Below, piece after piece: positions 3,495 through 8,330 of a DNA stretch of 8,330 nt. The notes beneath the pieces are model-generated. The model worked only from the letters and a program-made list of their open reading frames with translations. It was not told where the DNA came from and ran no database searches. The DNA is taken from IMG/VR virus record IMGVR_UViG_2537562231_000028. The stretch is one strand, 5' to 3'. Position numbers and translations under genes: made by a program. How positions within the stretch are numbered: position 1 is the first letter of the stretch; each line of letters begins with the position of its first letter. This DNA is from a virus (lineage: Duplodnaviria; Heunggongvirae; Uroviricota; Caudoviricetes).

Positions 3495-3794
3495 ATGAAA
3501 CTTAAATATCCTGGCTTAACTGACAGCGGCAAAACTCGCACTAAATTCATGCGCGGGGATATTTACCGCGACCAGTACGGCGGCACGGTAATGATTAAGG
3601 GCGTGGAGGAACGGCGCGTAACCTACCATCGTGAAGGCTACGAATATGATTGCGTGATGCCTGTTTATCAGTTCCGGCGTGATTTTTCTCTGGTACAGGC
3701 AGCGCCCCGCAGTAAACCAACCAGCAGGGAGAAAGCACGCGCCAATATTCAGGAAATAAAAAAGATGCTTAACGTATTCAGGGGTAAAAAATGA
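3495..3794 (+). CDS. Hypothetical protein (99 aa) translationally coupled to the primase gene
   Basis: ATG 3495 follows the upstream stop by 5 nt. Its stop overlaps the primase start (ATGA at 3791-3794). Basic C-terminal tail. No family recognised. Confidence 0.5.
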   Translation: MKLKYPGLTDSGKTRTKFMRGDIYRDQYGGTVMIKGVEERRVTYHREGYEYDCVMPVYQFRRDFSLVQAAPRSKPTSREKARANIQEIKKMLNVFRGKK

Positions 3795-5545
3795 AACTGG
3801 CACCGAACGTAAAAAAACAGCCACGCGGAATAAAACACAAAGACACAGAGGTGATTATTTTCGCGGGTAGTGATGCGTGGGCACATGCAAAACAGTGGCA
3901 GGAGCAGGACGGCCCCGCATCCGGCGATAATGTGCCTCCTGTGTGGCTTGGGGAGCAGCAGTTATCAGAACTGGATAAGCTGCAAATTGTGCCGGAAGGC
4001 AGAAAATCCGTGCGCATATTCAGGGCCGGACATCTTGCACCAGTAATGATCAAGGCGATTGGTCAAAAGCTGGCGGCGGCTGGTGTACAGGATGCAAATT
4101 TTTATCCTGAGGGTATGCACGGCAAGGAGGTGCAGAACTGGCGCGAATACCTGGCCCGTGAACGCCAGAATCTTTCTGATGGTCTGGTCATTGAGCTTCC
4201 GGTAAAGCAAAAGGCGCAACTTTCGCAGATGGCGGACAGTGAGCGCGCGCAGCTGCTTGCCGATCGCTTTGATGGCGTTTGCGTACATCCTGAAAGTGAA
4301 ATTGTTCACGTATGGCGCGGCGGGGTATGGTGTCCGGTCAGCACAATGGAACTTAGCCGCGAAATGGTGGCGATCTATTCAGAGCACAGGGCCACTTTCA
4401 GCAAGCGCGTAATCAATAACGCCGTGGAAGCGTTAAAAGTTATTGCCGAACCAATGGGCGAGCCGTCCGGCGATTTGCTGCCGTTCGCCAATGGTGCGCT
4501 TGACCTGAAAACGGGGGAATTTTCCCCGCACACGCCGGAGAACTGGATCACCACGCACAACGGCATTGAGTACACGCCACCAGCACCAGGGGAGAATATC
4601 CGCGACAACGCGCCAAACTTTCATAAATGGCTTGAGCACGCAGCCGGAAAAGACCCGCGCAAGATGATGCGTATATGTGCCGCGCTGTACATGATTATGG
4701 CGAACCGGTACGACTGGCAGATGTTTATTGAGGCCACCGGAGACGGCGGGAGCGGTAAAAGTACATTCACACACATAGCCAGCCTTCTGGCAGGGAAACA
4801 GAACACGGTAAGCGCTGAAATGACATCGCTTGATGATGCTGGTGGACGTGCGCAGGTTGTCGGGAGTCGTCTTATCGTCCTGGCTGACCAGCCGAAATAT
4901 ACAGGCGAAGGAACGGGCATCAAGAAAATCACGGGCGGCGACCCCGTGGAAATTAACCCGAAATATGAAAAGCGTTTCACGGCGGTAATCAGGGCGGTGG
5001 TGCTGGCGACCAACAACAACCCGATGATATTCACCGAACGGGCCGGAGGTGTGGCACGTCGTCGCGTGATTTTCCGTTTCGACAATATTGTTAGTGAGGC
5101 CGAAAAAGACAGGGAGCTACCGGAAAAAATTGCGGCTGAAATCCCCGTCATTATCCGCCGCTTGCTGGCGAACTTTACCGACCCTGAAAAGGCACGGGCT
5201 TTACTCATTGAGCAGCGTGACGGTGATGAAGCTCTGGCAATAAAGCAACAGACGGATCCGGTTATTGAGTTTTGCCAGTTCCTGAATTTTCTGGAGGAAG
5301 CGCGCGGCCTGATGATGGGGGGCGGTGGCGATTCAGTGAAGTACACGACCAGGAACAGCCTTTACCGCGTCTATCTGGCGTTTATGGCATACGCAGGCAG
5401 GAGCAAACCGCTAAACGTGGCTGAGTTCAGCAAGGCCATGAAGCCAGCGGCGAAAGTTTACGGGCATGAATATATTACGCGAAAAGTTAAGGGAGTAACG
5501 CAGACCAACGCAATTACAACAGACGATTGCGACGCGTTTTTATAA
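3791..5545 (+). CDS. Satellite replication protein: primase/helicase with a D5-like (SF3-type) P-loop NTPase domain
   Basis: 584 aa. Walker A GDGGSGKST; downstream hydrophobic strand plus acidic residue (RLIVLADQP) consistent with Walker B. GGGG 6 nt before the ATG. Position immediately upstream of an iteron cluster matches Pri-Rep of PICIs and alpha of P4. Confidence 0.88.
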   Translation: MKLAPNVKKQPRGIKHKDTEVIIFAGSDAWAHAKQWQEQDGPASGDNVPPVWLGEQQLSELDKLQIVPEGRKSVRIFRAGHLAPVMIKAIGQKLAAAGVQDANFYPEGMHGKEVQNWREYLARERQNLSDGLVIELPVKQKAQLSQMADSERAQLLADRFDGVCVHPESEIVHVWRGGVWCPVSTMELSREMVAIYSEHRATFSKRVINNAVEALKVIAEPMGEPSGDLLPFANGALDLKTGEFSPHTPENWITTHNGIEYTPPAPGENIRDNAPNFHKWLEHAAGKDPRKMMRICAALYMIMANRYDWQMFIEATGDGGSGKSTFTHIASLLAGKQNTVSAEMTSLDDAGGRAQVVGSRLIVLADQPKYTGEGTGIKKITGGDPVEINPKYEKRFTAVIRAVVLATNNNPMIFTERAGGVARRRVIFRFDNIVSEAEKDRELPEKIAAEIPVIIRRLLANFTDPEKARALLIEQRDGDEALAIKQQTDPVIEFCQFLNFLEEARGLMMGGGGDSVKYTTRNSLYRVYLAFMAYAGRSKPLNVAEFSKAMKPAAKVYGHEYITRKVKGVTQTNAITTDDCDAFL

Positions 5546-5553
5546 TTTTTTGT

Positions 5554-5790
5554 AAAAGCCCTCTACCCCATCTACCTGAATGAAATAAACGCATATTATT
5601 CAACATGATAAGTGGGTAGAGGGCCAGGTAGAAGGCTAATAAAAGCTCTCTACCTCTTCTACCTGATTTTATCAGTTTCAGGTAGCAGGGTAGACGGCAG
5701 GTAGAGGAGCCCAAAAAGCTATCTACCCGCTGAAAGCCGCGCCATTACTGACATGATGAGCATTCGGGTAGATGGGTAGAGGGGGGGAGG
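5554..5790. repeat. Iteron-type replication origin: three modules of forward TCTACC-type repeats paired with inverted GGTAGA-type repeats
   Basis: Forward blocks 5554-5578 (AAAAGCCCTCTACCCCATCTACCTG), 5641-5666, 5714-5728. Inverted blocks 5613-5635, 5679-5709, 5765-5787. AT-rich spacers between them (for example 5579-5612). Directly downstream of the primase/helicase stop. Confidence 0.7.
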
Positions 5791-5891
5791 CACAACTAAA
5801 AACTTTTTAAACGAGGGGGTGAAAATAAATGCGCATACATCAAAATCACTTAACAAACATGCCAGCCGAAAACATGAATCAGGGGCGACAA

Positions 5892-6137
5892 ATGACCAAA
5901 ATTCGCAGAGACAGAACAGAGCCAAAATATAAAGCGTTAGACATGACTGAGCATACCTTAAAGGTGGCAATCAGAACGATAGACCGCCACGCGGGGGAAG
6001 GATACGCGAAAGCACATCCCGACCTGATAAGCGCATTCATGACCACGACGGCGGCAAACTTTGCCACGCTGACAGAACGGGAGATTGCCGAAGCGGAACA
6101 GGTAACAACCATCAACGTTAAAAGCGCTGGAGAATAA
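5892..6137 (+). CDS. Hypothetical small protein (81 aa from ATG 5892; the track ORF begins at 5829)
   Basis: GGGG at 5882-5885, 6 nt before ATG 5892. Followed 19 nt later by a strong intrinsic terminator. No family recognised. Confidence 0.45.
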   Translation: MTKIRRDRTEPKYKALDMTEHTLKVAIRTIDRHAGEGYAKAHPDLISAFMTTTAANFATLTEREIAEAEQVTTINVKSAGE

Positions 6138-6155: not shown

Positions 6156-6179
6156 AGCCGGAGCAATCCGGCTTTTTTT
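6156..6179 (+). terminator. Rho-independent terminator
   Basis: Stem AGCCGGA / TCCGGCT with GCAA loop (6156-6173), then a run of seven T (6173-6179). Confidence 0.7.
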
Positions 6180-6267: not shown

Positions 6268-6462
6268 GTGGAACAGATAAAGCAAAGCGCTACCGTGATG
6301 ATTGATCACGAGATCCTAAACGAGCTTAAAAAACTTCAATTCGATGTTATTCGCCGGATGAATGAAGCTGGTATATACGGCAGAGCCGCCACGCCAACAG
6401 TAGGCCATCTTGCTCGCGTGCTGTTACGCGAACGCCTGGGCATTGCAACAGGTGAGGAATAA
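6268..6462 (+). CDS. Hypothetical small protein (64 aa, GTG start), possibly a DNA-binding regulator
   Basis: AGGAGG at 6255-6260, 7 nt before GTG 6268. SATVMIDHEILNELKKL ... TPTVGHLARVLLRERLG could form a strand-helix-helix arrangement, but this is an uncertain reading by eye. Confidence 0.45.
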   Translation: MEQIKQSATVMIDHEILNELKKLQFDVIRRMNEAGIYGRAATPTVGHLARVLLRERLGIATGEE

Positions 6463-6464
6463 CA

Positions 6465-6626
6465 ATGGCTATCACAGAACGCGAGGCAAGCATCATTAAA
6501 GCCATTGGCGAGGAAACAAGAGACACGATAGCGCCATTAATGGAAAAGATCGCAGAGCTTGAGAGACGAATAAACAAGCTGAGTGATGAAGTTGAAGGCC
6601 TGATCTCGTTACTCGGTGAGCAATGA
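6465..6626 (+). CDS. Hypothetical small coiled-coil-like protein (53 aa); absent from the supplied ORF track
   Basis: ATG 6465 lies 2 nt after the upstream stop, with GGTGAGGAA just before it. Hand translation gives MAITEREASIIKAIGEETRDTIAPLMEKIAELERRINKLSDEVEGLISLLGEQ, with heptad-like spacing of hydrophobics; stop TGA 6624-6626. Confidence 0.4.
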   Translation: MAITEREASIIKAIGEETRDTIAPLMEKIAELERRINKLSDEVEGLISLLGEQ

Positions 6627-6628
6627 CA

Positions 6629-6680
6629 GGGGGGGGGAGTGTTCCGGCCGGAAAGTCGATCGCCCTGGACACCGCCCCCC
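6629..6680. promoter_or_regulatory. G9 / C6-flanked imperfect dyad containing nested palindromes
   Basis: G-run 6629-6637 and C-run 6675-6680. GGGGGGGAGTGTTCC (6631-6645) pairs imperfectly with GGACACCGCCCCCC (6667-6680). Loop holds the palindromes CCGGCCGG (6643-6650) and CGATCG (6657-6662). No downstream T-run. Confidence 0.35.
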
Positions 6681-6709
6681 GTCTCATTCGTAGAAAATTT
6701 TGCTTTTCA

Positions 6710-6733
6710 AAAAAGTTACACGAAAAGTTACAC
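6710..6733 (+). repeat. Tandem AAAAGTTACAC repeat (2 copies) upstream of terS
   Basis: AAAAAGTTACAC at 6710-6721 and GAAAAGTTACAC at 6722-6733. Same core as the repeats inside terS at 6953-6986. Confidence 0.6.
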
Positions 6734-6755
6734 CCCCTCAAAACGAGGTTTTTGC

Positions 6756-7244
6756 ATGGCATTAACGACCAAAAAAAAGCGGTTTGCTGATGCGTTATCA
6801 AGGGGCGCAAATCCCACGGAAGCCGCTATACATGCGGGATACAGCGAAAAGACCGCAAGGGTCAAAGGCTGGCAGCTATCCAACGATCCTGAGGTGAAAA
6901 AGTATCTTAAGGCTGTAACTCCTGATGTAACTTTTCAGGTTACAAAACCGAAAAAAGTTACAAAGAAAGTTACCGAAAAAGTTACACCGGAACGGGCATC
7001 AATTAACACCATTGAGATGATGGATAACGGCCTACCCGACCCCATCAAAGCAATGGGCAGGATACTGATTGACAACATGGACACAGATCCAAAACTGGCT
7101 TTAGATGCCGCGTTTAAGCTGGCCCAGTTCACCCACCGCAAGATCGGCAGCATTGGGAAAAAAGAGGTTAAAAAACTCAATGCCGCTAGTGTCTACTCAA
7201 ATCGGTTCCCCATCCCTAAGCCACCAACAGACTTAAAACACTGA
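6756..7244 (+). CDS. terS: Terminase small subunit (TerS) with N-terminal HTH
   Basis: 162 aa from ATG 6756 (CGAGG 8 nt upstream); the track ORF from 6639 is an unlikely extension. KKKRFADALSRGANPTEAAIHAGYSEKTARVKGWQLSNDPEVKKYL matches the TerS N-terminal HTH pattern (AAI-AGYS-KTA). Confidence 0.7.
   Translation: MALTTKKKRFADALSRGANPTEAAIHAGYSEKTARVKGWQLSNDPEVKKYLKAVTPDVTFQVTKPKKVTKKVTEKVTPERASINTIEMMDNGLPDPIKAMGRILIDNMDTDPKLALDAAFKLAQFTHRKIGSIGKKEVKKLNAASVYSNRFPIPKPPTDLKH
6915..6986 (+). repeat. Cluster of six GTTAC/GTAAC-core repeats inside terS, including three tandem AAAGTTAC(A) units
   Basis: GTAACT at 6915-6920 and 6927-6932; GGTTACA 6939-6945; AGTTACA 6957-6963; AGTTACC 6969-6975; AGTTACA 6980-6986. 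Encodes the KVT-repeat linker KPKKVTKKVTEKVTPE. Confidence 0.6.
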
Positions 7245-7255
7245 GGTAGCGAACT

Positions 7256-7417
7256 ATGAGCGAATACATCACAGACCCTATTGATGTACTCACGGAAATC
7301 ATGAACGACAAGCAGCAGTCGACCGAAATACGGTTACAGGCCGCCGCTGTTCTGATGCCATATTTTCACGAAACACTAAACCCGTGCTTCCAGGAGGAGG
7401 AAGAAGATGATCTGTAA
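7256..7417 (+). CDS. Hypothetical small acidic-tailed protein (53 aa); absent from the supplied ORF track
   Basis: ATG 7256 lies 11 nt after the terS stop, with GAGGT upstream. Hand translation: MSEYITDPIDVLTEIMNDKQQSTEIRLQAAAVLMPYFHETLNPCFQEEEEDDL. Its 3' end overlaps the start of the capsid gene. Confidence 0.4.
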   Translation: MSEYITDPIDVLTEIMNDKQQSTEIRLQAAAVLMPYFHETLNPCFQEEEEDDL

Positions 7418-8330
7418 AAACATGAAAGGCGTGTCAGCAGTTCGCGCCGCCAGCGTGCTGGCATCGTGTAAATTTAGCCATGCTGACGCTATAGAGATGA
7501 CGAAAAGAAATGATCCGGCAGTATCGTTATTTCTTGAAAAATCCGTAGTAGCAGGAATGAACACGGATAACATGCCGTCGCTGGTGGCAGAGCCGATAGT
7601 AAGAGAGCTTGGCGAGTATATTTTTTCGCAGTCTGTACCAGGCAAGCTAATCAGCAGCGCGCTAAATCTTCCTTTTGGCGCAAAATTGCAGTCAATATCA
7701 GGCAAGGGCAGTAAATGGCTTAAAGAAGCCGAAGAAATCCCTGTCAAAGAGGGAGAAGTAAACGAAAGTGCGCTAAAACTGTGCAAACTTGGCGCTATTG
7801 TGATGCTGAATAACGAGCTAATCAAATTTAGCACCCCTGGTACAAATTCAGCGATCAGAGACTTGATCACATCGGAATCGGTGAAAGAAATAGATAAAAA
7901 ATTTCTTTCCAGTGACCAGGAGGTGGCTGGCGTATCCCCTGAGGGCGTGCTTAATGGTGCTGATGAGGCCGAAAACTTCATAGAGCTTTTCAAAAAGCAC
8001 ATAGCGAACGGTAACACGCTTTCCACGTCGTCGCTAATCTTGCCCGTAGAAAACGCCTTACAGCTTACTGATGCTGAGTTCTGGCAGATAGAGCTTTTGA
8101 GAATACCGGTAATTGTGAGCGAACAGGCGGATCGCATGATGCTGATAGACGCTCAAAAGCTGATTATTAACGTTGAAGCCACGGTTATAACCCCAACTGA
8201 TGAGGCGGTAATAAAAACCGAATCAGGGGCGGTTAGCCTTTTCCAGAATGACGCTACAGCGTTCAGGGCAATCACCTATTGCGGATGGCAAAAACTCGAT
8301 AAGGCCGTCACCGTTCTGGCGAAAAGCTGA
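7407..8330 (+). CDS. Putative major capsid protein, HK97-like fold (candidate; no N-terminal delta domain apparent)
   Basis: 307 aa. AGGAGGAGG 6 nt before ATG 7407. KLGAIVMLNNELIKFS ... AIRDLITSESVKEIDKKFLSSDQEVAGVSPEGVLNG resembles the HK97-family pattern of a hydrophobic strand followed by a Gly-rich P-x-G-hh-N-G loop (compare HK97 gp5 LLNGDGTGDNLEGL). Call made by eye. Confidence 0.5.
   Translation: MICKNMKGVSAVRAASVLASCKFSHADAIEMTKRNDPAVSLFLEKSVVAGMNTDNMPSLVAEPIVRELGEYIFSQSVPGKLISSALNLPFGAKLQSISGKGSKWLKEAEEIPVKEGEVNESALKLCKLGAIVMLNNELIKFSTPGTNSAIRDLITSESVKEIDKKFLSSDQEVAGVSPEGVLNGADEAENFIELFKKHIANGNTLSTSSLILPVENALQLTDAEFWQIELLRIPVIVSEQADRMMLIDAQKLIINVEATVITPTDEAVIKTESGAVSLFQNDATAFRAITYCGWQKLDKAVTVLAKS

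Follow-up and report, generated by a model that had tools for sequence, protein, structure and literature searches.

The 8,330-nt stretch of viral DNA analysed here (IMG/VR virus record IMGVR_UViG_2537562231_000028, hereafter the window) raises a question of packaging: what kind of element places a gene for a small terminase subunit (terS) before a capsid gene, with no gene for the large subunit (terL) between them? The first-pass annotation of this region considered the layout out of the ordinary and proposed a helper-dependent satellite that builds its own small capsid. We find that the element is almost certainly a classical, non-capsid-forming phage-inducible chromosomal island (PICI) of the Gram-negative type, and that its layout is instead the published core layout of Escherichia coli PICIs (PMC10085698). 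The explanation that best accounts for the whole locus, and which we consider probable, is that the island TerS directs packaging at a cos core shared with helper phages, while the capsid homologue co-assembles with the helper head protein.

A terS-capsid unit at the end of a chromosomal island

The gene at 6756-7244 (+ strand) encodes a 162-aa small terminase homologue. Pfam Terminase_2 covers the N-terminal 51 residues of its product (42 bits, with 26.1 as the cut-off; positions 1-51 of 141), and the PHROG 641 family, ‘terminase small subunit’, the full-length protein (E 3e-43, positions 1-156 of 162); both the N-terminal helix-turn-helix (HTH) domain and the C-terminal part of this family are present. 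A sequence search against solved structures gave no significant match for this TerS, the seven weak matches (E 0.2-0.8) being to SF6/SPP1-type DNA-binding domains. None of the seven was named Rpp, the protein that binds helper TerS in the island EcCICFT073, Rpp sequences not having been compared directly. The last gene of the island (7407-8330, + strand) encodes a 307-aa capsid-protein homologue. As the first-pass annotation had it, no terL lies between the two genes, the sole intervening open reading frame (ORF) being one of 53 aa (7256-7417, + strand).

The window matches the genome record of E. coli Z1323HEC0108 at 99.9-100% identity, and this record gives the sequence beyond its end. The capsid gene terminates the island; attR comes ∼350-370 bp beyond it and is succeeded by the host gene yejO. 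Hence no terL was found downstream of the capsid gene before attR; a terL in that place is what the first-pass annotation had named as fatal to its own reading. Portal, protease and connector genes were likewise absent up to attR. The att repeats are 8917 bp apart and the insertion site lies between yejM and yejO. One repeat copy is in the tRNA-Pro gene; the repeat consists of a 17-nt exact core, CTCTCGTGCCGACCAAA, within 32 nt that are 81% identical and cover the tRNA-Pro 3′ end. The island is thus seated at tRNA-Pro and would form a circle of about 8.9 kb on excision.

PICIs are defined by five core parts: an integrase, a regulator, a primase-replicase, a capsid-morphogenesis gene and terS (De Sousa et al., PMC10085698). 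The first island gene (1-1242, + strand), adjoining tRNA-Pro, encodes a 413-aa tyrosine integrase (Pfam Phage_integrase, Phage_int_M and Arm-DNA-bind_3), so that an integrase stands at one end of an element bounded by att repeats. The regulator is a 68-aa AlpA-like HTH protein or excisionase (1739-1945, + strand; PHROG 66, E 5.5e-7; an HTH regulator in RefSeq), whose score with Pfam Phage_AlpA, 17.6 bits, is under the cut-off of 21. The replication module carries a 584-aa D5-type primase-helicase (3791-5545, + strand; Pfam D5_N, DUF5906 and Pox_D5; PHROG 864 ‘DNA primase’, E 1e-174). Directly 3′ of it, dense CTCTACC/GGTAGAG iterons in both orientations (5558-5783; repeat families D1, D2, D4 and D7, inverted pairs I1-I17) flank an AT-rich stretch and mark a probable replication origin, in the position that PICI origins occupy relative to pri (PMC6092414). 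The two remaining parts, numbered iv and v in SatelliteFinder (terS and the capsid-morphogenesis gene), complete the set. Since the integrase, the alpA-like gene, the D5 primase, the iteron origin, terS and the capsid gene are combined on one strand, as are all the main genes in the ORF list of the window, and since att repeats bound them, the island appears, as far as sequence can tell, to have every feature of a PICI.

What is missing agrees with this assignment. No tail, holin, portal or head-tail connector gene, the parts ‘forbidden’ in PICIs, was present among the ORFs and annotation from attL to attR. The island does not belong to the capsid-forming PICIs (cf-PICIs), because terL, portal, protease, head-tail adaptor and connector genes are all absent from it. 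Neither is it P4-like: sid, psu and delta gave no match when ten ORFs were compared with Pfam and PHROGs, the small unscanned ORFs not having been searched individually, and the ORFs outside these ten are annotated as Icd-like, YlcI/YnfO or hypothetical. The proposal of a helper-dependent satellite therefore stands, since an island without TerL, portal, protease, connector and tail genes must take them from a helper. The terS-capsid arrangement itself is already known, being catalogued as a hallmark of E. coli PICIs, and 21 of the 29 Gram-negative PICIs used as references have a capsid gene (PMC10111431).

Positions 6268-8330 form the packaging and morphogenesis unit of the island, which was found at ≥80% coverage in 220 of 5426 complete E. 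coli genomes. Substitution patterns indicate that terS and the capsid gene are under purifying selection. The ratio of nonsynonymous to synonymous substitution rates (dN/dS) was 0.16-0.58 for terS, the top values resting on 2-3 differences, and 0.14-0.29 for the capsid gene in comparisons with E. coli variants. Because of these latter values, and because full-length homologues of the capsid protein exist across genera at 38-80% identity, this gene is not a decaying remnant.

A shared cos-like core and island-specific repeats

The segment upstream of terS relates the island to a defined group of phages. On alignment, positions 6629-6686, a run of G followed by CGATCGCCCTGGACACCGCCCCCCGTCTCA, are nearly identical to the DNA of phage 1717 lying between its HNH nuclease gene and terS (L002 667-725; L numbers designate individual loci), while the flanks are unrelated. 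The 30-nt core CGATCGCCCYGGACACCGCCCCCCGTCTCA was found in 30 viral contigs. The record of phage Lys8385Vzw starts and ends inside this cos-like core, a break that is suggestive, but not proof, of terminase cutting there. The G-run (6629-6637 in the window) is variable: phage 1717 has 11 G, the window has 9, and the islands EcCI11368.1 and EcCI11128 have 7 each. The 1-nt length difference between the window and the otherwise identical genome record probably lies in it. In islands from Serratia, Arsenophonus and a metagenome, a G-run, a C-run and then TCTCAC..AGAAAAAATT precede terS.

Next to the core lie six AAGTTAC repeats, two upstream of terS and four in the region encoding the TerS linker, which form a candidate TerS-binding (cosB-like) site. 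All six copies in the window fall within 6713-6985, against 0.87 expected, and none of 200 shuffles reached this number. The repeats follow the type of TerS. Among 34 core-bearing sequences (the window and 33 loci), loci with the 162-aa island TerS carried 6-7 AAGTTAC and no GTTAAC, whereas those with the 187-aa phage TerS carried 4-5 GTTAAC and no AAGTTAC. Island and phage 1717 TerS are 45% identical. Counted by hand on the alignment, identity is ∼67-71% in both the HTH domain and the C-terminal part, with a different linker joining the two. We dropped the idea of a higher conservation at the C-terminus of TerS than at its N-terminus, as ∼71% versus 67% is no meaningful difference. From the pairing of TerS and repeats we infer that the island protein may read AAGTTAC.

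In the phages, the module has the order HNH, cos, terS, terL, fused head protein, portal. The phage-type cos-terS unit was present in 1246 of 5426 E. coli genomes, and at least three complete genomes had both this unit and the island module (20 island-bearing and 60 phage-bearing genomes listed). Island and helper contigs shared no IMG/VR genome identifier, and no mapped cos site of a BP-4795-type phage turned up in the literature searched. As candidate helpers we infer the HNH-cos lambdoid siphophages that make up the 1717, BP-4795, Stx1a, Stx2c and PPompW group (Stx, Shiga toxin). Redirection of packaging by the island TerS at the shared core, using the TerL and HNH nuclease of such a helper, appears rather likely from the conservation and repeat patterns. 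The detail that is new here is the combination of a cos-like core common to HNH-cos lambdoid Stx/PPompW prophages with island-specific AAGTTAC repeats behind it and, in addition, a small putative mimic of TerS, described below.

The capsid homologue and its possible roles

The 307-aa protein matches Pfam Phage_capsid PF05065 (28.7 bits, curated cut-off 24.2) and PHROGs 617 and 10 ‘major head protein’. BLASTP aligned it to residues 302-636 of the 656-aa head fusion of phage 1717 (E 5e-20), so that, with 24% identity, it is a homologue of the presumptive helper's capsid protein. An AlphaFold model of moderate quality (predicted local distance difference test score 66.5, predicted template modelling (TM) score 0.66), obtained from 16 homologues, was compared with solved structures by Foldseek. 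The best 50 of 199 matches with E≤0.001 were all HK97-fold capsids or encapsulins; the probability reached 1.00 for many solved capsids, with TM of about 0.41-0.46 on this moderate-quality model, and the matches included the SaPIbov5 procapsid containing Ccm, the capsid homologue of that staphylococcal island. A sequence search against solved structures gave no match. The Pfam, PHROG, BLASTP and Foldseek results agree with the HK97-fold capsid protein suspected from the first reading, and the profile and structure searches proposed at that time returned a capsid protein with neither a protease nor a scaffold part.

The lack of a delta domain, also suspected earlier, was borne out. In an exhaustive search, residues 5-12 of the protein aligned near residues 100-120 of ∼450-aa capsids and its start to about residues 290-300 of 640-aa fusions. 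As alignment begins at ∼100-120 in the former and ∼290-302 in the latter, the protein is predicted to be the mature capsid domain only. No delta or scaffold domain was found in the protein or as a separate scaffold homologue, and the protease part that phage relatives carry in the same polypeptide is absent from the 307 aa. The delta domain of HK97 is reportedly essential for assembly. In the phage collection, the closest relatives show 22-27% identity and include many heads of lambdoid Stx-converting or PPompW-type prophages, whose ∼650-aa head protein joins an S78 protease and a coiled-coil scaffold region to the capsid domain.

We also compared the residues corresponding to HK97 K169, N356 and E363 in a 162-sequence alignment including HK97 gp5 (sequence checked, 100% identity). 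The island protein has I, D and I in these columns (I112 and I290 by alignment). Of 27 short delta-less relatives listed, 26 are without equivalents of K169 and E363, with hydrophobic or other non-catalytic residues in their place, the exception being P0030 with K-N-E; this triad is kept in 33 of 45 long fusions. The alignment, weak evidence at such low identity, suggests that the satellite capsid proteins are outside the chainmail chemistry. The head proteins of the candidate helpers have K or R, G and E in the three columns, and their capsids may therefore be without crosslinking as well.

Two further ORFs of 53 aa belong to the unit. The one between terS and the capsid gene (7256-7417) resembles TerS residues 92-134 (hhalign probability 95%, E 2e-8) and matches PHROG 641 positions 89-125 (E 3.5e-7), but its tail is acidic where that of TerS is basic. 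It is conserved in four of four TerS-bearing islands (L035 9840-10004, L039 9837-9989 and L050 8938-9108 being the others) as an ORF of 50-56 aa with the motif DPxxxLxxIMxD..RLxAAxxLxPY. That this look-alike acts as a terminase-binding mimic, by analogy with Ppi of the pathogenicity islands found in Staphylococcus aureus (SaPIs), is only a speculation. The other 53-aa ORF (6465-6626, + strand) encodes a coiled coil, ends just before the cos-like site and is conserved in the Arsenophonus and metagenome islands. Its candidacy as a detached scaffold was unsupported (BLASTP E 14; hhalign probability 2.6% against the fusion-protein alignment). The 64-aa ORF that opens the unit (6268-6462) showed on comparison no relation to the scaffold of the helper fusion protein.

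These elements can be assembled into a sequence of events. Following published PICI biology, a helper phage would induce the island, which would excise and replicate from its own origin. The island TerS would then bind the AAGTTAC repeats beside the core common to island and helpers and recruit helper TerL and HNH nuclease, leading to a cut at the core and to packaging of island DNA; the 53-aa TerS look-alike may bind terminase subunits. Meanwhile the 307-aa protein, unable to build a shell alone, would co-assemble with the helper protease-scaffold-capsid protein, as Ccm does, and alter head assembly, with smaller heads, interference with the helper, or both as the outcome. For the capsid homologue we prefer this Ccm-like co-assembly, tentatively and with somewhat less than even confidence.

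Several observations count against this scheme. The position of cos cleavage derives from one record break and conservation; the pairing of TerS with repeats is one contrast of two sequence classes and not a statistic; and the four copies within terS could simply reflect the repeated KKVT peptide that they encode. The capsid homologue is ∼24% identical to the capsid domain of the candidate helpers, no closer than to capsids of Moraxella and Salmonella phages. In EcCICFT073, the one E. coli PICI tested, deletion of a (different) capsid homologue left helper interference unrelieved and the DNA was in full-size heads (PMC6092414, PMC10111431), and transfer does not need such capsid genes (PMC10111431).

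These EcCICFT073 results lend themselves to another role, in which the capsid homologue acts chiefly in interference, spoiling helper head assembly as a poison subunit, or is dispensable with most helpers, the island being packaged as multimers in full-size helper heads. Five to six times 8917 bp gives 44.6-53.5 kb, near the 50.95-kb genome of Lys8385Vzw, and the absence of K169 and E363 equivalents almost throughout the delta-less family would fit as well. However, full-length conservation across genera (38-80%) together with dN/dS of 0.14-0.29 argues for a selected structural role, and the EcCICFT073 protein is of a different capsid family, the lambda E type; we regard this role as the main rival, though rather unlikely. 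Formation of a small, island-specific capsid by the 307-aa protein alone, with TerL, portal and tail from the helper, was the proposal of the first-pass annotation. It could draw on the full HK97-fold domain preserved by purifying selection, on the encapsulins among the fold matches, which have the same fold and assemble without scaffold, and on the small genome of 8.9 kb, but it has to do without a scaffold or delta part, a protease and a portal. The precedents are also contrary: nearly all head genes of cf-PICIs were needed, as all but one mutant lost transfer, and Ccm alone forms no capsids. This part of the earlier reading is in our judgement very improbable. Hardly any credence can be given to a decayed prophage that has lost terL and other head genes. 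Such a remnant would account for an order of terS and capsid gene that mirrors the phage terS-terL-capsid order, but not for intact att sites and integrase, an own replicon with iteron origin, genes under purifying selection and a compact module present in 220 complete E. coli genomes and other genera, with no tail or lysis genes.

Returning to co-assembly, a fuller proposal can be formulated, which we put forward as doubtful in its entirety. This PICI subgroup would combine an AAGTTAC-reading TerS acting at the shared cosN, a 53-aa TerS mimic interfering with the helper terminase, and a capsid paralogue that has neither scaffold nor crosslink residues and occupies set positions in the helper shell to give small heads, and would hence parasitise Shiga-toxin phages in O157, O26 and O111 strains.

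Accessory genes, related islands and known systems

Other features of the window complete the picture. The early region contains, by the annotation of the matching RefSeq record, a YlcI/YnfO-family gene (2328-2507, - strand) and a gene for an Icd-like cell-division inhibitor (2691-2888, + strand), followed by a 99-aa DUF4222 protein (3495-3794, + strand; Pfam DUF4222, 82 bits). After the origin come a conserved ORF (5829-6137, + strand; PHROG 1231, E 6e-49), a terminator-like hairpin (∼6156-6173; L001 12157-12174 in the genome record) and the 64-aa ORF mentioned above (+ strand; in the ORF list and a RefSeq CDS), which had no family match in Pfam and PHROG scans. No sigma-70 promoter was found by scanning the packaging unit, which fits dependence on an activator and proves nothing. 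Both island ends contain, outside the window, an exact double motif of 26 nt, TTTTAGTTATACGTTTAGTTATACGG (L001 5914-5939 and 14600-14625), which probably represents integrase arm-type sites. A near-identical sequence was given as the att site by Fillol-Salom et al. 2018; the repeat at the tRNA-Pro 3′ end lies further out.

The nearest relatives are EcCI11368.1 of E. coli O26:H11 and EcCI11128 of O111:H-, both at the tRNA-Pro/yejM site and listed as PICIs in Table S1 of Fillol-Salom et al. 2018. They end, like the window, in terS (489 nt), an ORF of 162 nt and the capsid gene (924 nt), and share the cos-like core and the AAGTTAC repeats. Identity between EcCI11368.1 and the window is 99.8% for the integrase, 97% for terS, 92% for the 53-aa ORF and 97% for the capsid gene, whereas the replication gene of both islands encodes a RepA-type helicase instead of the D5 primase. 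More generally, the replication module is swapped among near-identical islands, being a D5 primase, a RepA-type helicase or a DUF927 protein (3791-5545 in the window versus L052 4500-5900, L053 5219-6619 and L050 5397-7523). Conservation of integrase and packaging unit with exchange of replication genes is modular mosaicism.

Single-protein look-ups gave the island contexts in other genera. Islands of the int-alpA-primase type in Serratia aquatilis, Arsenophonus nasoniae and a metagenome contig likewise close with a gene resembling terS, an ORF of ∼50 aa and the capsid homologue. None of these three has any further head gene, and no terL, portal or protease gene was seen in the related islands looked up (Serratia, Arsenophonus, Klebsiella and metagenome). 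The A. nasoniae island (L039, CP123498.1, 710238-731185) lies inside a prophage, with HK97-gp10-like head-tail genes on one side and tail chaperone and tape-measure genes on the other, and resembles published helper-embedded PICIs. The capsid homologue is found as well in islands without TerS that adjoin fis in Klebsiella aerogenes and Serratia marcescens (L037 10001-13297, L048 7141-10942, L049 145-1092). These islands also encode a protein of 765-797 aa that matched nothing in Pfam and may have an accessory or defence function. Scans with the capsid family alignment yielded no confirmed locus in genome contigs and only near-identical E. coli copies in viral contigs.

As a finding the locus is real but ordinary and does not change the current understanding of satellites; in the literature searched we found no experimental dissection of the mechanism of the TerS-bearing PICI subgroup. 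If the mechanistic details hold, these PICIs would be natural parasites of lambdoid Shiga-toxin prophages in enterohaemorrhagic E. coli strains, and the spread of toxin phages could be affected, possibly lowered. The island would also provide a Gram-negative counterpart of capsid redirection by Ccm, usable for packaging-specific delivery of DNA.

Each characterised system shares part of this organisation. SaPIbov5, whose helpers are reportedly HNH-cos siphophages, carries a helper cos site and a homologue of the helper capsid protein, which have their likely counterparts in the cos-like core and the capsid homologue of the window. It has no TerS of its own, belongs to a Gram-positive lineage with no close sequence relation to the window, and its Ccm keeps an 87-aa delta domain that the window protein lacks. 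Among satellite capsid homologues only Ccm has been characterised; it occupies the pentamers of shells that the helper builds, giving T=4 small heads, and forms no capsids alone (PMC8569155). The pac-type SaPIs (SaPI1, SaPIbov1) resemble the window in redirecting helper TerL with their own TerS, and their Ppi, which blocks helper TerS, offers a possible analogy for the 53-aa look-alike. They differ in packaging by headful and not at cos, and in redirecting capsid size by the scaffolds CpmA and CpmB and not by a capsid homologue. EcCICFT073, with lambda and phi80 as helpers, has int, alpA, pri with its origin, packaging genes and a capsid homologue, and follows the same logic, in which a helper-type cosN is paired with a cosB of the island's own. 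It redirects packaging through Rpp bound to helper TerS, whereas the window island has its own TerS, and its lambda-E-like capsid homologue, of a different family, is accompanied by a decoration-protein gene. The cf-PICI EcCIEDL933 is a related type of satellite with HNH, TerL and an HK97-type capsid gene among the parts of its head module; cf-PICIs carry terL, portal, protease and head-tail connectors, none of which is in the window island. By analogy, the island would work most like a blend of a pac-type SaPI, with its own TerS and possibly a small protein aimed at terminase, and the cos-type SaPIbov5, with its helper-type cos and its capsid homologue.

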